Shown here one piece after another: positions 43,201 through 59,450 of a DNA stretch of 64,000 bases. This DNA comes from Lingula anatina. Lineage: Eukaryota; Animalia; Brachiopoda. The stretch spans positions 21,266,001-21,330,000 of the forward strand of contig CM120641.1 of the NCBI GenBank assembly GCA_051362555.1, given 5' to 3'. Both the position numbers and the translations under genes were made by a program. The notes beneath the pieces are model-generated. The model ran no database searches and was not told where the DNA came from. It was given only the letters and a program-made list of their open reading frames with translations. Position 1 is the stretch's first letter. Each line of letters opens with the position of its first letter.

Positions 43201-46200
43201 AGTTTTGTTAATGAAAAGGGATATAAAAGCTTTTAATATACAAGCCCAGGCTGCCTAAATTTTTTAAAACAATACCACTCACATGAAGCAACCCTTTTTA
43301 CAGCTATGTGGCTAAATTAATTATGTTAGAAAGATTTTGGACAACAGCATTTACATAATGCTCATAATACAGAATGCATGAAAAAATCAATAAAGTAATC
43401 TACAATCAAATTTGCTTAATCTGTACATGGACAAAAAAATCCTCCCTTTGACTTTGAGACACACAAAAATCTAATCATCTTCTTACAAAATTTTACAAGA
43501 TATAGTAAATCAGTATAATGGGGTTAAGGTACAAAAGGTCTTTACAGGGTAAAATAAAATAAATTTCCCGTTGGGCGTGTATTAGTGAGAGATTTATGAT
43601 AACATGCCATACCTCAAACATGAACGTATCCACTTCCTCCCTAATATCTTCATCTGTAAGAGGAGTCTCAGTCTCTGAGCTGTGAAGCAACATGTCAAGC
43701 AATGCCAACTTTTTACGTCCACCTATCGACATATGGTCTTCACCTCCCTCACTGTACTGTTCCAGTGTTTTCTTCCTGTCTTGGATGAGGGATTTTTGAA
43801 ACTGTTCCTTTCGTTCAGCAATAACCTTTAAAAGTTTGATTAAAAATGTATGGTTCATAGCTGTCAAAATGCTCAAAACATTTAAGACAGCAAAGTTGTC
43901 TAATGAACAGGTTATACACTGATTAAAAAATAAATGACTTATGTCTTTCTTGTAAAAAAACCTTTAAGCTGTCAAAAATTGAGAAATTAGATTTTGTGAA
44001 ATGAATATCACTCAACAAAAGATGAACACATGGATCCGCTCTTATCTATATATATAAAGCAGATCAAAATTTGAGTCTCTGACTCATGCTTATAAAATCT
44101 GACATAATAAGCATATAATATCCAATTGTTTTCTTCACAGACCTTATTAGTAAAATTATGAAGCACTCGTAGACATTCTTTGGTTTCTTTTCCATCACCA
44201 AATATGTCATAAATGAGGCTGGGCCAAAACCATGGTTGCTTCTGCCTCTCGGACACTAGATAACAAAGCCTGGCAAAAAGGAAAGCTCTACAAATATGTG
44301 GTGCTATGCACACACACACACACGCACACATACACACACATTCTCTCTTTTTCACAACTAATCAATCAAACTTTAAATAAATTAACAAATTGCCAATATT
44401 TAAACGGCACACACTGTGTGGGTAGCTAAGCCTGTGTGCACACCCACCTATGTGTTACTTTACATATTTATAAAAAAAGTCCATATGTGAGTGGGTAACC
44501 TACCTGTAGACTGCCTTGACATAATCAGAATCACTGTCCTGCTGGGCATTAACTGTCTGCCCCATAGCCGTCTCTGTAAAATAAGAATTGTCATTGTTTC
44601 AAAAACAAAGAAATTAATGAGTTTTTTAGCTTATGATTATTTTTATGACATTAAATTGGTTGAATTTTGTCCATTACAATACCCAAGGCATATTGCTCTA
44701 TAATGTAATGATAGAACATATCAATAAGTAGTTGAATAATTTTTTCTTTGTTTTGGGGTAGTTTTTATATTGACATGAAATGAAAAAAAAACTAAAAATA
44801 TTGAAAAGTATGTTTATTGTGATTACCGTAGTATCAGAATAATAAAAACATATAAGCAATAAAAAATCATAAAAAGTCCTTGCCACAAATGATATCCAAT
44901 GCACAATGAGTGATGTAAGGAAATACATCAAAGGCAGGTCCTCCTACGTGTTTTGCCATCTTGTTGACCATAATGTCTGCCTGCTCACACATCACATTAA
45001 GAAAATTGTTCAGAATCTTGAAATGAAAAGCTGGAGTCAACATCTTCCTTCTTGTATGCCACTTTTCTCCTTTACTAAACAATAAAAGATGAAATGATTT
45101 ATTTGATCTGATATCAAGAGAAAACTTTACTACAGTTTGCATTGCTGAACATTTCACATGGATTTACTCATACACAAAACAAAATTTTAAATCTGCCCTT
45201 TAAAGCCTTATCTTACCTATGACTTTATCTTATTTTAGTTATGATAAGACTTTTCAAAACTTCACCAAAGAGCCTGGAAAGCAGGACTAAATTGTCACAC
45301 ATTAAGTTTAGAATGCTAGAAACGATTCACTTTTTACCACCACTACACAAGAGACAATTAGAAGTCTAGGCCATCATACTACATAAAAGGGCTCAACTTT
45401 TTCACAAAGAAAAGGTAAGTGAATATATATATCTATTATTCACGGTTACCTTATTAGTAGACCTGTGCCTAGCCAGGGTACAAGAAATCTGTAATCACTA
45501 GATTTCTCAGAATGCTTTGTACTGTTATAAAGTTCCTGAAAAAAAAAAGAAAAAATATTATACTTTTTTCTATGTACCTATGTTTAAATTTTTACATAAT
45601 AGTCTTTTAAACTTTTTTAACATGCACCTAACAAATAGATAGACCAAAACAAAAAAAAAATTTATAGGTCTGTATTATTACTTTGAATAAACAAATTGTG
45701 GTTGAAAACTAAGCAACATATCTACATAACATGTACCAAATTATTATGGTAACAAGAAATGTGCATGTCTCCAGCTCTGGCTTCTGTTCTAGCTCCTCTG
45801 GTTCAGACAAAGTTCCAGTAGGTGATGGCAATATGCAGAGACAATAAAACTATATCACAGTGTGTCTGAACATAAATTCATATACCTCCACAGTATCGGC
45901 ATGAAAAAGGATGACCCTTGGTGATTCTCCAAGCCACACACGGATTATCCCATGTTCTTCATAATCTTTACTATATTTCATTATCTGCTCATAGAAATCT
46001 GAAAGTGACAAAAATAATAACTATGTGAGATCTGAATGTGACAGAATAATAGCAATAATACAAATATATGTAGTTGGACGACATTGACTGCTACATTACA
46101 ACAGTGTCTACCTCAAGGACGCAACAAGTCCATCTATAAGTCTATTTTTATAATAAGCAATTAAATTTTGTATGTATTTTTAAAGCTTTATTGTTATACA

Positions 46201-47484
46201 AAATTAACAAACTTAACTTAAATAAGTTAAAAATTAACTTTTTCATAAAAATAATTTCCTGTGTTTACTTGAAATGTAATGACTTAATTGAGTTTATTCA
46301 CCAGTTAAACAGCAATGTACACTTGATAAATGGGGACCTACTAGTACCTTGTACCAAAAGCTTAGTTGAATAATTTTCTAAAAGGCAAACTATAATGCAT
46401 TATTCTTTTAAAAATCAAAAGCAAAAAATCTTGGGAATTTAATCTTATGAGAAAAGTATGATGTGTAAGAACATTTTTAAGCTCTTCATTTATAATCTTT
46501 ATGTCCTGAGTGAGTGGAATTCACAGTCCCTATCTCCATCATAGTATGGTACTGTAGTCTAAGTGTCTTAAAAATCATAACTTTGAAACTCAAAAACATG
46601 TAAGTTAATGATAAAGGGAAAAGTATCAACAGTTATAATCTATAGGAAATGTATTGCACTCATAGTGTGACTTAAATCATAATCATGTATTAGCAAGATG
46701 GGATCATTCCTACAGCATATCAGTCATCATTCGACAACTTATATTCCAAATATTATGAGGCAATATGGCAGGAAGATGAACATTATTTTAACATTATTCT
46801 AAATGCAAAGTTTTGGAAAATTTGAAATATTTCAATTTTTTGGTGCTAATAATGCCAGAATTAGCCAACATCTATGAATGTCCAAGCTGGGCCTACGTGT
46901 ACTTTGACATGAACTGTTACACATGATAAGCCAAATAGGTTAATGTTTAGTCAAATGAATATTTGCCACATAAAACCATCTTATGTCATTGGTCAATCTC
47001 TGGGGTCATTACCTGGTCAATACGTGGGCTGAAATGGCCAATGACATCAACGTCAAGGGTTTACCGTAGTTTCAGTTTGCATCACGATTACTATAGTCTA
47101 TAGTCAGGTAAACAAAAGCAGAAAGACAAGTGTCTGTATACAGAGATTACATTGAATTGGACTCCAGACTACTGTTTAACTTTAAATCTACAATATCTGT
47201 CCTAGGCTGTGGTACTTTAGACATTCGTACTTTGAACTGAGCTCCGACCACCTGACTACAGTGTATATGCAGACACCATAATAAAAAAACTAACCTGCGC
47301 CTCCAACTGCGAATTGATGCGTGTTTCCCACCAGCGGCAACGCTGGAGGCCCAGCCATCTTATCAAAATGACGTTTAGTTTTGAAATAATGCAAAGCATA
47401 TGCGACAAGCGTCGCAAATATAAACGTTATCCCAATCAAAGGAAGGGATGCACTGGTGTACACCGAAAAACTCTGTTCCGCCAT
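40215..47484 (-). CDS. CYP4V2: Cytochrome P450 family 4 (CYP4V-like), 12 coding exons, 524 aa
   Basis: Exons (-) 47484-47295, 45998-45886, 45535-45450, 45074-44884, 44573-44504, 44269-44143, 43825-43613, 43009-42907, 42713-42646, 42308-42242, 41859-41680, 40381-40215 (1575 nt). Motifs: N-terminal TM plus [14 protein letters not shown], the CYP4 I-helix [22 protein letters not shown] and heme [10 protein letters not shown]. Exon sizes 113/86/191/70/127/103/180 match my recollection of human CYP4V2, so the symbol means -like, not proven orthology. An in-frame upstream ATG at 47532 is possible. Confidence 0.92.
41017..41188. mobile_element. Multi-stem palindromic MITE-like element in the last P450 intron
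   Basis: Nested inverted arms: ATCTCCATGGGGATTCTCACT/AGTGAGAAACCCCGTGGAGAT, CTTAAGCGGCTTAGATGT/ACATCTAAGCCACTTAAG and CCTACTGAAGCTG/CAGCTTCAGTAGG. Confidence 0.75.
44574..44883 (-). other. Non-canonical GC-AG intron (P450 intron 4)
   Basis: The conserved IC-E-TAMG junction needs a phase-1 donor at TGTG|GCAAGG. No GT is available there and the resulting exon is 191 nt. Confidence 0.85.
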
Positions 47485-47705
47485 TTTGAACACTCGGATC
47501 ACATGACAATCAATCTTGTCACGTGACAGCATTTCCGCGAGATCTTGGGGAAAGCCGACAGTAAGTTGAACGTGTTGTCTCTAAAACCAATAGTTAATTG
47601 ATTTTTGGTTGTTTATTTATCAGAAAATACAATTTACCAATAAAGCTATGCCAGTGCCTTGTCATATTCATTTTAAAGAACCAAATGATCATCTTTTGAT
47701 TCAGA
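47485..47705. promoter_or_regulatory. Bidirectional promoter shared by the CYP4V-like gene and IPMK
   Basis: Only 221 bp separate the divergent ATGs. The interval is CpG-retaining and has a 12-bp palindromic E-box TGTCACGTGACA (47517-47528), an M-box-like TCACATGAC (47499-47507) and a CGCG-element-like TTCCGCGAGA (47533-47542). Confidence 0.75.
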
Positions 47706-50700
47706 ATGACGCTAGAAAATACGCTCGTCAAGGAGAGTAAAAATGAAGCCGAAGAACTGGAAAGTGTCTCAGAGAAACCGCTTGAAAATGATGTTCGAGA
47801 AAAAAGACCAAAGACACCTCCCCTTCCAAAAGGAACTCAAACTCTCGAGCATCAGGTCGCTGGCCACAGGCATGGAAAGAGTAAAACAAAATTAGGTATT
47901 TGAGTGATATCTGCGATAAAAATTTGTTAAGTTATTCGGCTGTGGTATCACAGAATATTACTCGGAACAAACGTGAGACAAAAGGGGCTTTGGGACGTAT
48001 TTTTTGGAACTCAATCTGTCGACTTAAAAAACTGTTATACATGTTAAGTATCTGCGCCCTCTTCACTTCATTTTTCATTTCTGGATTATATACATATCAT
48101 ATATATTAAAAAAATGTGTTGCTTTCATTCATCAAGAGGAGATTGTGTCTGACAAATACCCAACATTTCTAGGAGCCACAGGAGTAAAGAGATTTAAGAC
48201 CGCCACCATTTCTAGTAGTTAAGACCACCACCCACTGTTTTAGATAATTTTATATCGGGGTAACATGGAGTTTTGAGATGCCCCCTCATCCATTTGACAT
48301 TAAGCATGCACATATTTGACTTCATTTCAGGTTTTCTTCAAAATACAGATGGTACTGTCCTGAAAGCCATCCAGTCTCCTCCAAGAGGAATGAGAGAGCT
48401 GCAGTTTTACCAGAATGTTTTTGATGAAAATCAAACAAACTCAGCTTTAATATCTCTGAGACAATTTATGCCTAAATACCTTGGAACCTACAGCTCTCCA
48501 GAATTACCAAATGGTAAGTTGATTGAAAATTATCGATTCTATTAAATGAATAAATTTAATTCTTAAACATAATAACATAGCATGCATTGGCTGGTCACTA
48601 ATTGTGATTTCTGACAGAAATTTTATTGTTCACTTTGGTGTAAAATCTAAGTTTTAAAGTTGTAATATTTTGTAGCATTACTTTTGCTGGATAATGGTAG
48701 ATTTTTAGTCTTTATGATTTGGTTTTTGTAATTCATATTTACATTTCTACTAATGTTCAACATTATAGTTATAAATGAAGTGTTGTTTGTTACTATGCAT
48801 AAATTGTTTTTCAAGATCCAATACTAATTTCATAATGTCAGAATTACTTTATGAATAAGAAAGTTTGAGGCATTTTTCTCTAATTTCTTTAGTTATTGTT
48901 GAAGTGTGGTTTTGGGATATTCTTTGTTATTATTTTTCTGGGATTATGAGCATGTTTGTGTAAGAATGAATGTTTTCACCATCATACGGAAGAAAGGTTG
49001 TCACCATCACGTTTGATAAACATTAAATCTCCTATTTGATTAAGTCATTTTCATTACATGTATATATGGATAACATGTGAATGTATTTGGAAAGGTGCCC
49101 TTTCTGTAGTCACTGGAACAACTACACCTATGTGCCACTGCAGAGTTTTTGCCACATATTTAAGCTACAGAAATCACAAAATTATTCAGTCTGTTTTTGC
49201 ATATCACCTATTCTATAACACTTGGTCATAGATTCTAATTTTAAAAAAAAAAATTAATATGTTTTGTATTTATATATTCTGAAAATAATTTTGAGCACAT
49301 TTTTTAGATGGCTGGATTGTTTATTTGTCAGCTTTGTTGTCCGATAGTGATCACAATATCATTTTGTATCTTCTTCATAGTCACTTTCATCACAGTTGTG
49401 AAGTACTGTGGTCATGAGCATTTTGCTTATACATTCCAGCTTCTTGCATACTCCTTACCCACTCTACCAGATAAAGTGATAAGAGCATGCATTGAACTTT
49501 TGCATGTCTGTGCCTGTTGGTCATTATGTGGATTGATATTACATTATTTAGGGGTTTGCATATCAAAATAAACACAGTTTGAAGAATTTGCTCACATCAT
49601 CACTTGTGCAAAATGGGTATGCCAGTTTTGTATACCAAAAAGTGCCCAAAGTATGAGGGTCTTGATGTCACAATTAAGCCAGCTATGCTGGGTAGAGGAG
49701 AATTGCCCCCAGTACCTGAAACTGAAAGGGGGTATCAAACTGAAAGGTTCCCAAAATGTTATACCGCATTTCAGTGATGTACCTCGTGATGGAAAAGGTC
49801 ACTCAGCCTTTTGCAGAGCCCTGTGTGTGCGACCTAAAAATGGGAGCCAGAACTCATGACCCTGAAGCAACACCAGCCAAAATTGCCCGTGAAAAGGCAA
49901 AATATCCGTTCTTAGAAAACGTTGGCTTTCAATTCCAAGGCTATAGTGTAAGTACAAACTGGCTGCCATTTGCTTTTTTTTTCTAGTAGAGTGTATGGTT
50001 TGCTCACTGTTGTTGTATGTAGTGAACTTTTGCTGAGGTGCACACAGACTTGTTCTTAGACCCAGATCAATGTAGGTCTACATTACACCACCAGGCAAAC
50101 AATTGAGTAAACCAGTTATTTGGCAGTTTAAACCATCGGGTATCCGACAAGTCACTGGTCGATTTCATTTGGTTGTTTGGTGATGGAATTGGGACCTGAA
50201 GTTGTTGCCTGTCATTGTGTTGAAACTCATATCAAGATATGGTTTGGATGTTGTATTGCACAAATCTATGCCACCTAGCTATTACAGATGGTAAGCTGTA
50301 AAAAGCATTGGCCATAGAAAGTTTTTGTTTGACTTGATGTTGATGTTGAACTTTTTTCTTTGCCTCTTTCAAAATGCCTTCTCTTATTTAAAAAAAAATA
50401 GATGTTTGTAACCTTGATGACATTTCAGAAGTTTTAATGCTTACTGCTGCCTTACTAGGTCGTCCCCTCTAACAGCTTGTTTCTACTTCCTGGGAAAGGG
50501 GATTAACACTGGCTGTTTCTCTTCCAGTCTTATACCTGAGAATGGATGATATATGTAACACATTCTCACAGCCTTGTATAGCCGATACAAAAATTGGCCC
50601 AGTAACATATGATCCTGATGCCAGCCAGGAGAAAAAGAAGCATGAACTTGCCAAAAATTCTTGTCTCCCCATTGTGGGGTTTCAGCTGTGTGGATTGAGA

Positions 50701-53700
50701 GTAAGTCCCCCCATACAGTCCAAGGGACAATAAAGAAGACCTTTATCATCTTAACTCTCTCATTTGAGCAGATGCCACAAACAGGTTTAAAGCCTATATA
50801 TATATAAATTAAAGTGTGTGAGAAGAAATGTAAAAACAAAGTTCATCCAAATTTTGCAGGTTCTGAATAAAATATCTACTGTTTGACTGGAAGCAAAGAT
50901 AGCACTAGGACATGTGATATTTGATGAAAAAGATGCTTGTTTATACGGCTTTCAGTTTCACTTAAGGCATCCCTTGGCTTGAAACGTAATGTGGTTGTGG
51001 GCAGCTATCCTATCTTTAAATCTGCTGCATATTGTACTTCCCTGCATTAACCTTAACCATTGTTATTGTATTGCTTAATTTTGAACATTTACAAAGAAAG
51101 ATAGCAGCAGCAAAATGTTTTTAACAGTGTCTTGATATAATAGAAAAAAATCGATCAGTTTTCAGTGTTTCCACATATACTTCATTCAAAGTTAAACACT
51201 GTGGGTGCAGCACACAAGACCCAAGGGGAAGGGGTATAGGGAGACATGGGGGGGATGGGGGGGGGGGGGGGTCAATATTTGTACTCTTAGATGTGAGAAC
51301 CACCTCCTGTATCCCATTATGAATGGAATTGTTTTTTTTTTCCCTCTGTACCAATAGATTTGTCCTAATCAGTGTTTTTATTACAGGGAATTTTGAGATG
51401 CATGGTTTTGTTAGAATTTCCATTAGCAATGATATCATAGTAGTTTGTGACCGTATAATCCATTGTAACATGGTACCTTGCTCAGCATTTGTTATCTGAT
51501 ACATTCAGTGGTGACATCTTTTTAAGGTTCTCTTCGAACTTTTTGTATCATCTTGCACAAATCAACTAAAAACTGTTAATGCTTCTTTTTGCCACATACA
51601 CTTTTATTATTTATAGTGTGCACAAATTTGGGCACTTAAACTTTAATGCATAAATGATATTGAGAAAGATAATAAAGGAGTTGCATAGACTGAGTAAACC
51701 CAAAATATCTTAGGCAATAAGTTAATTTGTTCATTCCATAAATGTGATTGAAATAATAAAAGCAAAGCCACACTAAGCAAATCTTATTGCTTTGTATAGT
51801 TTGTACCATTGGTCTACTGTTGACCTCTAATTTCGTCTGTGTGTTGTTGAATGATTTTGACAGCGGATTTTATTTTTGTTTTTAGGTTTATGATCAAGTT
51901 AAAAAGAAGTATGACATATATGACAAGAAGTTTGGCAGATCTTTAACAGAAGTGGAGGTTCTAACCAAAGGTGAGAGTCAAACTTGGATTTATGTACTGA
52001 CAGTCAATGAAAACGCATCAGAAAACTTTCTTGTACTTTTTTACCAAGAATCGATTCCAACCATGTAAAGGAGTACAAATGCACTTGTTTGGTCATAAGA
52101 GAGTGGGCTGACCACTCAGATGTTTAAAATTTCCGCTTCAGTGATTTTGTGATCAGCTGTTACAAAATCGTGTGTTATCCTGTCTCGTGATTGGTGTGAA
52201 TTAATCAGGTTCAATATATGGTGATTAATTAAGCCTTTTTAAGCTAGTCACCAAATGCAGTATGACACATGACAAAAAACTTCAGTTATGCCACGTCTGA
52301 CACTGGAAGAGCGACTGCGGGCCCTGGGGATGTTGGAGGCTGGGTGGAACCAAAGAGATTTGATCATGTGACCTTGCATTTTAATGATCTTTTCTGACCT
52401 TTATTTCACCTTGTGTGACTGAATAATGGGTGATATTTCACATGAAAACTGTTATTTTCTTAATGTGCTGAAGGAACTTAAAATATTATTTGATAAATAA
52501 ATGATGCATTTTCATTGACTGTCAGTATATGTACAAAAAGTAAGATGACAAATACCCTCTCTTCAGAGGATTAGTTATCTGGCCTACCTAACTACCAGAT
52601 GTGGCACTGAAAGATCCAGAATTTACCATAGATTGGATCAGGTTACCGGTTTACAAGGTGTGTATCAGTACACGCTTGGAAGTGTCAGACACGGAACGAG
52701 CACCAGGCAAGAGGGTGGCACATCTGACACTTCGAAGAACGTAATGATACACACCTTGAAAAACGATAGAGTGATGCGATCAACGGTAAACTCTGGATCC
52801 TTCTGTGCTGCGTCTGGTAGTTGGGTAGGCCTGGTTATGTTGTTACCACTCAAACTTTTGAGGAACAATCCACATACAATGCATGTGAAAAAATTCCTGG
52901 AAATTATACAGGTTTATTATTCATCAAAGCATACGGTATGCAAAACTATATGTATGCCAGTTTTCTATTGTAAATGTTGAAATTTTACTGTCAAGTATGA
53001 AATTTATCAGTCTCCATCTCCATTGCAAGAGTGACTCTTTTTTACAACTAAAAAAAAATGGTTCATGAATTGCCTATCTGTGAACACTTTGATTATGGAT
53101 GCCTTGTTAATGAGAGGAAAGTTTTGAAATTTCCAGGAAAACATTCTTTGCTGTAACACCCAGTGTGTGCCTTTAGCGAAGTGTTTGTATTGATGGTATT
53201 CCAGTCTATCATTACACTCACTGTCCATTTAAAATGTTGCTCATTGGGTCAAACATTTTTTTCCACAAAACCAGCCCGTCTTATTACTTTGTCTTGTCTA
53301 ACCAGGTTTTGCAGCTTTTTTTGACAATGGTTATGGAATCCGGGTGGATGCTGTGAAAGCCATGATCAAAAAGTTGGAAGAAATAGAGAAGTGGTTTATG
53401 TCACCTTCAGGCCTATGTTTCTATGCAAGTTCACTGTTGCTAGTATATGATGGAGAGAGAACCAGCACAGGCAAAACAGATGAGGAAGTATCTGATGGCA
53501 TTGACTATATCAAAGAAACAGACTGTGCTTGTACCCCTGAAGTGGCTGGCTGTGTAAATCAGTGTCAGCTTGCCATGGACTTAGAATGCCCAGTTGCTGT
53601 GAAAATGATCGATTTTGCTCATGTCTTTCCTGCAAGTGGTCTGGATGAAAATTATTTAACAGGACTGCGCAGTTTAATAGCATATCTCCACAGAGTACTG

Positions 53701-53709
53701 GAACTTTGA
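47706..53709 (+). CDS. IPMK: Inositol polyphosphate multikinase, 5 coding exons per isoform (exon 3 duplicated), 344 aa
   Basis: Exons 47706-47895, 48331-48513, [49775-49947 or 50528-50700], 51886-51970 and 53306-53709. Motifs HQVAGH, PPRGxRExxFY, PCxxDxKxG, YASSLLLVYD and MIDFAH are present. Confidence 0.93.
49775..49947 (+). CDS. IPMK: IPMK alternative exon 3a (mutually exclusive)
   Basis: 173 nt, TTTCAG acceptor and GTAAGT donor, phase 1 to 0. Encodes VMYLVMEKVTQPFAEPCVCDLKMGARTHDPEATPAKIAREKAKYPFLENVGFQFQGYS. Confidence 0.88.
50528..50700 (+). CDS. IPMK: IPMK alternative exon 3b (mutually exclusive)
   Basis: 173 nt, CTTCCAG acceptor and GTAAGT donor, phase 1 to 0. Encodes VLYLRMDDICNTFSQPCIADTKIGPVTYDPDASQEKKKHELAKNSCLPIVGFQLCGLR. 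Confidence 0.88.
51997..52525 (+). mobile_element. Internally deleted Tc1/mariner element in IPMK intron 4
   Basis: 24-bp TIRs with 1 mismatch (CTGACAGTCAATGAAAACGCATCA), TA on both flanks, and a residual transposase start MPRLTLEERLRALGMLEAGWNQRD at 52288-52371 that resembles a Tc1-type N-terminal HTH. Confidence 0.85.
52576..52837. mobile_element. Long palindromic MITE-like element in IPMK intron 4
   Basis: Outer arms GGCCTACCTAACTACCAGA...TTTACC / GGTAAA...TCTGGTAGTTGGGTAGGCC and inner arms CAAGGTGTGTATCA...GAAGTGTCAGA / TCTGACACTTC...TGATACACACCTTG. Confidence 0.75.
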
Positions 53710-55065: not shown

Positions 55066-56671
55066 TCAGTAGTCTGGAGCTGGTGTCAGAAGAGTCTTGA
55101 TGAAGTCTGCATACTTAACTTGTCCATTTGGTTGGATCTTTGCCTCCCTGAATAATGCATCAACTGAAAATAAAAGTATTTGTGTAATGATCAAGAGTAT
55201 GAAATGAGAATCTGTAAATCACTACTTCAAATAAAACATTAGTTTTCATTTCAGTATTAACTTTGATAAATTGTGAAGGAACCAAATATGTTTTGACCGA
55301 TGGGAAGCATAGCAAAAGCAGAAGTTAAAATATATTCGTGTACAAGGATGCACAGTAACCACAACTCATACAAGAAACTAAAATAACATAATAAGTAAAC
55401 AAATTATTGTCAGTAGAAAAACACAACACATTTTCACCTTCTCTTTTGTTCAGTTTTTCCCCAAATTGTGTCAGAATATTCTTGACCTCCGATGCATTCA
55501 CGTATCCTCGTCGTTGAATATCATGTGACTGGAACGCTGCCACAAGTTCCTCCTGACACTTCTCATTCTGGGAATGTTCATGCATGATATCCAGGAAAGT
55601 GGCAAAATCAATCTTGCCCTCTGGAATTCAAAACAGGTAAGGAATAGAATAAATCTGAAGATAATAGTACATAACAGAGCTGATGAAATTCTTTTCAGAA
55701 TGAATCTTATTTTAGAGCGCTGAATGCTACAGTATTTATTCATGTTAATGAAGGTTTAAAACTGGATTGATTTTGGATCGTATCACTGAGTATTGATACT
55801 AGCAAAATTCTTAAGTAGTTTAATGTGGTTCTCAGAATCAGATCCCTTATCTATGCACAAAGCGATCACTTACTTTCTGACATGTAAATCATTAAATTAA
55901 ATTAATAATATGAAATTATTAATAGTTGAAAAGTTTTCATTCATGATAGTTTTACAGTATTTGAAATACCTGTTGACTGTTTCATCTGTTCACACTGACA
56001 GACTTGGTCACAATTGCTATCATATGTATCATAAATGATAACTTTTCAACTATCAAAAACTATTTTCACTTTTGAAATTATTAAGTCTAAAATATTATAC
56101 TAACCTTTCTGGTATTTTTTGTAATACGTTTGCAACTCTACAATGGTTGGGCTATAGCCTAATGATCTCATAATGATCTTTAACTCCTCTACATTGACAA
56201 TATGCCTTTGTCTTGCATAGAAGGAAAAACATTCCTTGAACTCTGAAAGAGATTAATATAACTTATAAGTAATCACAAGTTGTGAGTATTTTATTTTAAA
56301 ATAATAATTCATAAAATTTTAATTATGCCATTCAGACTTAAATGATTCAGTGATTGAAACAGTACATGAGATTTAGTCAAGAAATGTATCTTAACTGTTT
56401 AATTAGAAAAGAGTCTGCTTGGTTGGGAATTTAGGGCGTGTCCAACTTCGGCAGTGTACTGAATCAGTAACTCATCAGAATAAAATACTTATATCTCAAC
56501 GGGAAAACTATGCAATAAAATAACCAGTGAACCTGGTATTTGCACTTACCATCTATGTCACTCTTGCTAAAGAATCGGGCCTGAAAAGATAAAGAAATAT
56601 TTTAAGAGTTTTGATGCTGTTGCAGAGTTATAAAGTGAAAAATTAGAAATAAATGAAACGGTACTCACCAT
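55066..56671 (-). CDS. CALML4: Calmodulin-like protein 4, 5 coding exons, 150 aa
   Basis: Exons (-) 56671-56669 (ATG only, typical of calmodulin-family genes), 56580-56550, 56242-56105, 55620-55438 and 55163-55066. The protein MARFFSKSDIDEFKECFSFY...MRSLGYSPT...IDFATFLDIMH...GEKLNKREVDALFREAKIQPNGQVKY...PAPDY has degenerate EF-hands and CALML4-type termini. Confidence 0.9.
55922..56053. repeat. Short inverted-repeat element in CALML4 intron 3
   Basis: 27-bp arms with 2 mismatches (ATAGTTGAAAAGTTTTCATTCATGATA). Confidence 0.65.
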
Positions 56672-59450
56672 CTTGAATGATCCCGCACTTAATTATGTTT
56701 TGTAAATGTTTCTTATTTCAAATAAAATGTATTAAATGGTGTTATAAAAATAAAAAAATATTTGATGTATAGAAAAGATGTGTCAGTTAAAATCCCATTC
56801 ATTCAATTGAGTATTTGATGGAAAGAATTCAGGGTGACTTGAACGACCTTCACCTTTGAATTTATTCTGCATCAGTAGCTAACGCATTGGTTATTTACAG
56901 GAGTATTTACAAGATGAATAATAGTTTGAAGAAGATGTGAAAGTTAAACAATTTGATTCAGTACGAGAGGGTGCATCCATGTAAATGGTGAGCAAAGAAT
57001 TGAAATATTTTGAGATATCTATCTTACCATTCTATTTCTAACGTAAACGAATGTTTTCATTCAATTTCAAGTTGGCCATACCTACATGTAAGTCATGCCC
57101 TTCTGGGGACATCTGTTGCAATTTCCTACGTCTTGAGGGTGGTGGAAAGGAGCTATTTGATTTTAAAGTTTATGTGTTTTGTTCTTATCTGTGGCCATTT
57201 ATCATTGTTTCCAGATGGCCATACCTGAGTGAAGCCATTTATCCATTATGCTAGCTACTCCTACCTTGTGTAGCTGATACCATTCCCACTAGTTGTATGA
57301 TGTAATACTTATTTAGTTATGTAAGACCGAATTATGGCCATATAGATTAACTTCTTGATTTAGTAAATTTTCAATTATTTTCTCAATGATATTTTACAGG
57401 TGGGCCAATTTAGTACAGTATCATTAGGGATGTACATATGTATGTACCCCCATTACACCAATTGGGGGGGGGGGGGGGAGTCTTTGGAAAAATGATGTTA
57501 AATAGGTCAAAACATTATCTGTCTGTTTACAAGAAAGTTTTATAATTCACAAATGTATTCTTACAAAGTTGTTAGTTTTTTGTAATTGAAAGTTGTGCTC
57601 ATGATCAGTAAAGAATGTTACTTTTACAAAAGATGATTTCTTTTCTTCTTAAATCAAATGGTGAATGTGCCAGGTGCATGTCAAAAGAAGTCAAAATTAA
57701 GCGTAGGAATAAAATTCAAGACAATTTATGAACATTATATTCCAAAATTATTGAGATGCAAATTACTTTTTTAAAGAATGCAATTTTTGAAGTGTATCAA
57801 AATTGATACGAATGTACAATGGATATATGTGTAGCAGTTAGTATTTAACCAGAAAAATTTAATTACTAAAAAAAAAAAGAATCTATCCTTTTCTTGTCTA
57901 CTCTCAGTGAACACACAGGATTTCACCTGCATCAAGATATAACTTGAGCAGCTGCAGTCTATGATTTACATAAAATATAAGCTGAATATTAATAAAATTA
58001 CCAAAAATTATTATAATCTGTTTGAAATCTTTCTTATCATATTTATTTTTCTTTAAAACCAACCATGTTGGTTACCAATCGTCAGATATTTCCAGTTTTA
58101 TTCGCGCTGTTTTATCTTATATCAACATTATCTAATCAAATAGATAACATTCCAAAATTGTTAGGTGTTGAAAGAAATAGGTTCTATTGACTTTTGCATT
58201 TTAAAAACACATGTGTTTTATACTAACAGACAAAAATGAGATAAACTTGGAATTTCTTCAGGTGTTACCCTCTTATCTTTTTTCATTTATAAGAATACAT
58301 TTAGCTGTATATTTTTCAGAGATGTTAGTCCTAAATATCAAAGAATAACAAAGCGGGCTAATGTTGACATTTGAAACTTATCTTCATTTCAAAATGATAC
58401 TGTAGCCTCATATGGTTTCAAGATAATTAAGTATAAGATGTCAAAACCAAGTAATCATACTCACCCCTCCTTTACGGTCTTGTGAACGTGATGAGAGATT
58501 CATTTTTATACCTACATATGTGTAGGAATTGCTGGGACACAAACACACACACACACCCCTCTGATATAGCTGCCCTAATATGCAGTGTATCTATGCCTGG
58601 TATGCAGGATGGATGTACCTCACCAAGTGTAGATAAACCACAGGGCTGACATAGTAAACTTTGAACTCTGTACAGTCATTTGAATGAGATTAATGCCCCC
58701 TATTTTGTTTATGCCCCTCTGGTCACCCTTATTGTTTTATGGGTAGCATCTACTGAAGAGGCCAAGTCTAAGTTATGCACAATGTGTAAAGTTTGTGAGT
58801 TTTGCTCATGCCTATGCTAATGGTATAGACAAATCCATAGTAACTAGTTTTGTTGGTGTCCTGGTTTATAACTTGTGTATGACACTGTGGAATAGATAAG
58901 AGTGGGTTATACATGTGAGGACAAGTTAAAAGGTATAAATCCAGTTTAAAATTTTTATAGCATTTTGATAGTACAGATATGGTAAAAGAAGAAATCTTAT
59001 CAAGTAGTTAAACTATAAAAAAAGAATTGCTTTAGATGATAAGATTTGTTTGTTCATAAAATGGCTTCAAATTGTACTAACAGCGTGGGCACTGGGGGTA
59101 CTTGTGGTTTAACCAACCCATTATGTTTTTTAAGAAATCCATCTCATAGGTCGTCATGCTTTAAAATATACTTTATGAAAATTTGAACCTTCAAAAGGTG
59201 GTCATGCTTTAAGCTGCTCTTTTTAAAAATCTGAAAAGCGGGTAATATTTGGTTGATATGATCAACTGTGTTGCTTCAAATCTACATGTTGCAGGCAATC
59301 TAATTTAAGTGCTGAAATTTTCAGAAAAAGTCCATTTTTCCTGATTTATACCGAAAAAGCACTTTGTCCAAGAACAATGATTTATTTATTCATCTTTCTT
59401 TCAGATATGAATTCCAGTGTTCAATACGGGGTGTGATATGTGAAGCCACC

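Follow-up and report, generated by a model that had tools for sequence, protein, structure and literature searches.

Complementary intron segments around one of two duplicated IPMK exons in the brachiopod Lingula anatina

The gene for inositol polyphosphate multikinase (IPMK) in Lingula anatina contains an unannotated duplicate of exon 3, and the intron segments that surround the first of the two copies are truly complementary, with moderate signs of selection. Our tentative reading, to which we give somewhat less than an even chance, is that an upstream stem resembling that of Drosophila serpent has been selected around exon 3a, so that exon 2 could join exon 3b, with a hairpin that competes with the stem making 3a the default. 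All positions refer to the window, the 64,000-nucleotide stretch of L. anatina DNA that was analysed, and the IPMK features described here lie on its + strand.

By its sequence, the locus is L. anatina IPMK. Compared with the L. anatina inositol polyphosphate multikinase XP_013386572.1, the spliced model agrees at 343 of 344 residues and its last coding exon at 99%, and the product has the PxxxDxKxG motif, the IP helices and the C-terminal IDF motif that mark the PF03770/IPMK family. An upstream non-coding exon ends at 47560 (RNA junction 47560-47705), and the coding part of the first coding exon, 47706-47895, is placed by that junction, by junction 47895-48331 and by the protein match. Exon 2 (48331-48513) and exon 4 (51886-51970) are defined by junction reads, and the last coding exon (53306-53709) by an RNA junction, Pfam and the protein match. 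Between them lie two copies of exon 3. Exon 3a (49775-49947, 173 nt), the copy in use, encodes the hinge, the PxxxDxKxG motif and the IP helices, as judged from Pfam IPK, junction reads and XP_013386572.1; exon 3b (50528-50700, 173 nt), an intact paralogue of 3a, is seen with Pfam IPK and in 3a-3b reads. The 3a donor GT is at 49948 and the 3a-3b intron is 580 nt long. XP_013386572.1, which forms a one-member protein cluster, carries 3a without 3b.

Several other features were observed in and around the gene. A cytochrome P450 gene (Pfam p450; 44870-47580, - strand) runs away from IPMK, and an open frame at 47290-47580, which may be its first exon and has no Pfam match, overlaps the non-coding first exon of IPMK. 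An EF-hand calmodulin-like gene (55073-56692, - strand; sub-threshold EF-hand matches) converges on the 3′ end of IPMK. Transcribed dispersed repeats occupy 51990-52530 and 52795-52833 in the last intron, with reads from both strands and many loose ends.

A sequence-only reading of this DNA had described an IPMK gene with tandem exons 3a and 3b, and Pfam, the protein match and the alignment of 3a with 3b bear this out. The copies score 45.9 (3a) and 46.6 bits (3b) against the same part of the Pfam IPK profile, are 40% identical as protein and, as expected of duplicate exons, share their 173-nt length, their phase and intact AG/GTAAGT splice sites. Each aligns gap-free to residues 126-180/182 of human IPMK (PDB 5w2g, 6m88, 6e7f), in which the exon 4 segment from residue 126 contains the hinge, D144 and K146 together with the IP helices, which determine substrate specificity (PMC12467090). 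Human Q163 is R in 3a and H in 3b, E131 is E in 3a and D in 3b, and Y168-P169 is replaced by N-S in 3b, which retains equivalents of D144, K146, K160 and K167. Among 138 full-length homologue segments (11 of 149 were left out for gaps or truncation), the Y and P that follow K167, both lost in 3b, are kept in 79% and 90%, and none of the 138 shares the T that 3b has within D-x-K; in the same comparison 3a likewise holds rare residues.

The two copies differ at pS 0.70 and pN 0.39, with 18 of 57 third codon positions identical. Third positions this close to saturation suggest that the duplication is old and that both copies have long been kept as coding sequence. With its unchanged length, stop-free frame, GTAAGT donor, pN below pS and the four retained residue equivalents, 3b looks maintained. 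The duplication carries no date, because the closest of 149 other representatives reach just 33/57 identity to 3a and 32/57 to 3b. Homologue searches at 101-2000 and at 31-100 residues, which were weak and word-limited, found no 3b-containing protein. Searches of open papers, without their supplements, gave no literature on a duplicated or alternative IPMK exon; a supplement could include a table of predicted alternative exons in Lingula. The string "splic" is absent from the text of the IPMK review PMC12467090. In the 3a-3b intron, 50185-50304 weakly resembles the 3′ half and donor of exon 2 (score 53, equalled by 8 of 300 shuffles), a likeness that terminates in a donor-like GTAAGC at 50291, and this segment is possibly a relic of a joint duplication of exons 2 and 3.

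Use of the two copies was assessed in 4 of 9 RNA runs from three studies, with 6-25% of every run covered, and a junction was listed only when it had at least 3 reads and 2 starts. Exon 2 was joined to 3a in 70 reads (60, 2, 8 and 0 across the four runs) and 3a to exon 4 in 35 (21, 6, 6 and 2). The frameshifting 3a-3b junction had 4 reads (4, 0, 0 and 0), equal to 4 of 39 3a-donor reads overall and to 4 of 25 in X13, the run that supplied all of them, and in the reads examined the 3a donor was the sole partner of the 3b acceptor. No exon 2-3b, 3b-exon 4 or exon 2-exon 4 junction reached the listing threshold in the four RNA runs; X13 could hide up to 2 exon 2-3b reads, which gives a 95% upper bound of ~10% on their share. 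Because exon 2-3b and 3b-exon 4 were never listed, the choice between 3a and 3b that had been proposed from the sequence is not demonstrated in these runs. The counts indicate that 3a is the default copy and that exclusion is leaky. Steric exclusion was rejected on the grounds of the 580-nt intron and the observed joining of 3a to 3b. Run X19 covers 50224-50677, part of the intron together with 3b, at ~9-10x from 5-6 read starts and with no listed junction; a retained intron, internal priming and an internal start are the options.

When both copies are included, the reading frame ends at codon 186, which lies 246 nt upstream of the last junction; when both are skipped, the stop lies 77 nt upstream of it. 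Early stops well before the last junction are the usual signature of decay substrates. These observations also bear on a distinctly unlikely alternative, namely that 3b is a poison or decaying exon that no longer takes part in an either-or choice, with 3a+3b transcripts sent to decay and the conserved intronic block described below tuning or silencing them. The only listed 3b junction is indeed 3a-3b, with 4 of 25 3a-donor reads in X13; its product has the stop at 246 nt, XP_013386572.1 and its cluster contain 3a only, and 3b deviates from K-Y-P and has the T in D-x-K found in 0 of 138 homologues. A poison exon would not need an intact frame, yet 3b keeps its length, frame and catalytic residues although third positions are nearly saturated, and rare residues are found in 3a too.

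The complementarity itself connects a 5′ arm in intron 2 (49608-49632) with a 3′ arm just inside the 3a-3b intron (49953-49973). The predicted pairing had been described as covering all 21 nt of the 3′ arm, with four single bulges and one G-U, and the 3′ arm had been placed at +6 to +26 of the 3a donor; both descriptions hold. Exhaustive enumeration gave 48 full pairings of the 21 nt that contain four bulges of one base each, and the best 8 of these have one G-U, a bulge at 49620 and an energy of -20.1 kcal/mol. RNAduplex put the isolated arms at -21.5 kcal/mol and the arms plus flanks at -25.1, the flanked duplex extending to donor position +5. Predicted pairing across +5/+6 supports the proposal that the stem could loop out 3a and abut its donor. 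Each arm is an imperfect palindrome, and the 5′ arm can also fold on itself as a lone hairpin (49604-49636, -10.1 kcal/mol). A 13-nt stretch of the 5′ arm, 49617-49629, is repeated exactly at 52952-52964 in the last intron, with some likeness in the flanks.

Whether the stem exceeds chance depends on how the search is framed. In controls that fix the position of the 3′ arm, an equally strong pairing was found at 1 of 196 GTRAG sites, at 4 of 1500 GC-matched random anchors, in 0 of 87 real decoy chunks and in 6 of 1000 shuffles with a fixed query. When any 25-mer of the 3a-3b intron was allowed, the stem came third at -23.3, and the best window in 26 doubly shuffled intron pairs averages -24.0, stronger than the stem. 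The energy comparison with shuffled introns that the sequence-only reading had proposed therefore places the stem above background if it is anchored at the donor, and not if every window of the 3a-3b intron competes. The whole-fragment z-score of 49600-49980 was -1.25. In partition-function calculations the stem had a probability of at most 0.29 in 8 of 8 fragments; 0.91 was attained only in the tightest fragment, 49604-49990, and the value fell to 0.00-0.02 once 100-200 nt more upstream sequence was included. The 5′-arm hairpin reached 0.56-0.66 in fragments beginning at 49400 or 49500, forcing the stem in 49500-50200 costs 21 kcal/mol, and a lower folding temperature brought no gain for the stem. 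Predictions of such long-range folds are of low reliability whether they favour or disfavour a stem, and the ensemble folds thus neither prove nor exclude this one.

An alternative is that two imperfect palindromes pair by chance, the arms being conserved for other reasons (the local hairpin, protein sites close to the donor, or a haplotype divergence that is uneven along the sequence) and the exon being chosen by proximity, splicing factors and decay of out-of-frame products. This alternative, which we regard as doubtful though quite possible, is favoured by the self-complementarity of both arms, by the third rank of the stem below the mean of the shuffled best windows and by its near-zero ensemble probability in larger fragments. 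The anchored controls, at ~0.3-0.5%, speak against it.

Natural variation was compared over 49590-50140 in X10, X4, X5 and X12, 4 of the 12 non-RNA runs. X12 gave no alignment to this segment at 80% likeness, which carries no weight as evidence, and X5 is identical to the window throughout it. X10 represents a divergent haplotype that shares its four exon 3a differences, 3 of them synonymous, with RNA run X19; L. anatina diverges among localities (PMC8146825), and that paper and PMC9013439 serve as context only. The X10 piece has 29 substitutions, 27 of them listed; the two others probably lie near a piece end, at 49604-49633 or 50108-50137, and so perhaps in the 5′ arm. Among the listed changes, 49641-49766 (126 nt) has 19 substitutions and 1 indel, and neither 49604-49640 nor 49948-49973 has any; sequence just before 49604 is unalignable. 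On the listed changes, the 5′ arm is an invariant island amid diverged flanks. The divergence of 15% in 49641-49766 extends up to the 3a acceptor region and is three times the rough average that the word share of the run implies.

The 3′ arm has no listed change in X10, X4 or X5, with insertions in the poly-T run just beyond it, and X4 has one arm substitution, at 49620, which is uninformative on stem versus hairpin because this base is bulged in the stem and looped in the hairpin. Stem energy is accordingly -25.1 in the reference, X10 and X4, counting listed changes only. Zero changes in the 46 nt of the arms has P 0.0005 at 15% divergence, two or fewer changes has 0.023, and at the 5% average divergence zero changes has p 0.09. 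A single divergent haplotype makes for slender evidence, and variability in the 15% stretch may be exceptionally high. Of the conservation that had been looked for in support of the proposed switch, the intact arms were found, in that no arm change is listed for X10, and compensatory substitution was not: the three haplotypes compared contain no such pair. Metagenome scans produced no orthologous intron: the alignment of both exons confirmed none, and of two loci with exon 3a one belongs to a distant IPK that lacks introns and the other is a false match of 71% GC.

Conservation in X10 does not stop at the arm. Over 49948-50103 two substitutions and the poly-T insertion are the only listed changes, and this scarcity of changes after 3a points to a conserved intronic block of 156 nt (Fisher p 1e-5 against 19/126 in the adjoining upstream intron, and 0.014 against an assumed 5% average). 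YGCY motifs, which are linked to MBNL, occur 4 times in the 156 nt, or at 25.6 per kb, against 7-9 per kb in the flanking introns. A search of the block against Rfam returned two sub-threshold miRNA matches only, so no known snoRNA or miRNA accounts for it. Within the block, a pyrimidine tract at 49973-49985 and an AG 38 nt past the 3a donor together resemble an acceptor, with no listed junction to the site, and the length of the T run in 49973-49985 differs between haplotypes. For a chance pairing of the arms speak the YGCY enrichment and the reliance on one divergent haplotype without covariation. The selected stem is weakened by a conserved tract of 156 nt that far exceeds the 21-nt arm, and by the 5′ arm being just as well accounted for by a hairpin or a protein site. 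Against chance pairing, the segment next to the donor finds its best partner precisely in the invariant 5′ arm.

The sequence-only reading went further and proposed a switch with two states of the 3′ arm: in the long-range stem it would give 3b, and in a local CTGCCA:TGGCAG stem propped by a helix between 49997 and 50104 it would give 3a. Its elements are present as described: CTGCCA at 49963-49968, TGGCAG at 50121, TGAGTAAACC at 50104 and TGAGCAGA at 50765. The local helix also exists, with the correction that GGTTTGCTCA begins at 49997 and not at 49998. In its favour, folding 49950-50135 by itself gives the local structure as the energy minimum, and the probability of the 49997:50104 helix reaches 0.97-0.98 in fragments ending near 50140. 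The z-score of 49950-50135 is only -1.09, however, and CTGCCA:TGGCAG has a probability of 0.00-0.03 (at most 0.03 once upstream sequence is included). Natural variants break each of the two local helices, and no compensating change accompanies them. X4 lacks 12 nt at 50112, among them the TGG of TGGCAG, which takes the duplex from -12.2 to -4.2; the same haplotype changes 49998, and in it the 49997:50104 helix is weakened to -7.8, and substitutions at 50104 and 50106 in X10 place two uncompensated mismatches in that helix (-15.9 to -10.7). The 3′ arms of the proposed local competitor (50104-50126) are thus not conserved. The weak partner past 3b, at 50765, was rejected with an ensemble probability of at most 0.001. 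We consider this exact switch largely refuted and, as an account of exon choice, highly improbable. An identical 10-mer occurs at 50104-50113 and 51691-51700 and nowhere else in the window, so placed that 3b lies between the two copies. Each of them complements 49997-50006, and the copy at 50104-50113 is not conserved.

Other helices could involve the conserved block. The four best windows against intron 2 all lie within it. Besides the main stem, it can pair with candidate upstream arms at 48936-48962, complementary to 50041-50066 (-27.8 kcal/mol; 0 of 87 decoys with a fixed post-hoc query), and at 49504-49535, complementary to 50076-50101 (-24.1), whose helix would enclose the main stem. The sum of the block's top three energies was matched by 7 of 227 real decoy blocks. 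This upstream helix set is mildly unusual and was found post hoc. No other partner of the 3′ arm stands out, and neither does a downstream stem among 56 middle-intron windows compared with intron 4 (best z -2.4). Two candidates for a second stem that would loop out 3b, 51691-51700 with 49997-50006 and 51835-51844 with 50040-50049, the latter 42 nt before the exon 4 acceptor, are both at background in decoy tests: 19 of 87 decoys equalled the first, and the second, at -15.3 against a decoy best mean of -14.5 (sd 2.8), is not above search-corrected background. It is unlikely, in our estimate, that a serpent-like ladder of stems on the 156-nt block swaps a hinge-plus-IP-helix module of IPMK (R or H at Q163), with stems from intron 2 hiding 3a and its donor and stems from intron 4 hiding 3b.

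Under the single selected stem that we tentatively prefer, pairing of the arms would loop out 3a and cover positions +5/+6 of its donor, and with 3a hidden exon 2 would join 3b, in cells or stages outside those sampled. The stem would form just occasionally, because the 5′ arm is transcribed ~320 nt earlier and may fold on itself; that hairpin would be the rival of the stem, leaving the 3a donor free and 3a the default. An either-or output would rest on frame, because 173 nt is not a multiple of three, and the 3a+3b and skip-both transcripts would be removed by nonsense-mediated decay.

The closest known system is exon 4.1/4.2 of Drosophila serpent, where Yue et al. 2016 (PMC4691838) describe bidirectional pairing with stem I formed by Ud and Ds. 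The likeness includes two exons duplicated in tandem, pairing between elements of the upstream and middle introns that would loop out the first exon, a frame shift on skipping both exons and double inclusion when control is relaxed. Serpent has four conserved elements, two stems established through compensatory mutation, and use of both exons, whereas in Lingula there is support for the upstream stem only, known here from sequence, this stem reaches into the donor, and in the RNA examined the second exon did not appear as an alternative. The analogy to Dscam, Mhc and 14-3-3 with their shared docking sites, drawn in the sequence-only reading, does not hold at this locus; serpent exon 4, with one stem per exon, is closer. 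Intronic complementarity that loops out a duplicated exon is what the locus has in common with Dscam exons 6, 4, 9 and 17, 14-3-3zeta, Mhc and MRP1 (PMC6071210). In docking-site systems several conserved selectors compete for one docking site; in Lingula the local competitor is unconserved and we found no second conserved partner of either arm. PMC6071210 also describes exclusive pairs enforced by NMD; with these Lingula shares equal exon lengths indivisible by three and an early stop on double inclusion, which occurs at a low level, and it differs in that the second exon alone was not observed.

If the stem is due to chance, there remain a conserved block in the intron and a duplicate exon that is unannotated, intact and seldom used. 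If the ladder reading is true, a brachiopod would choose exons by RNA pairing and an inositol phosphate kinase would have its specificity switched by splicing; we found neither in the literature searched. If the stem is functional, control of duplicated exons by RNA structure, studied mainly in insects so far, would extend to a brachiopod, and IPMK would have a second substrate pocket.
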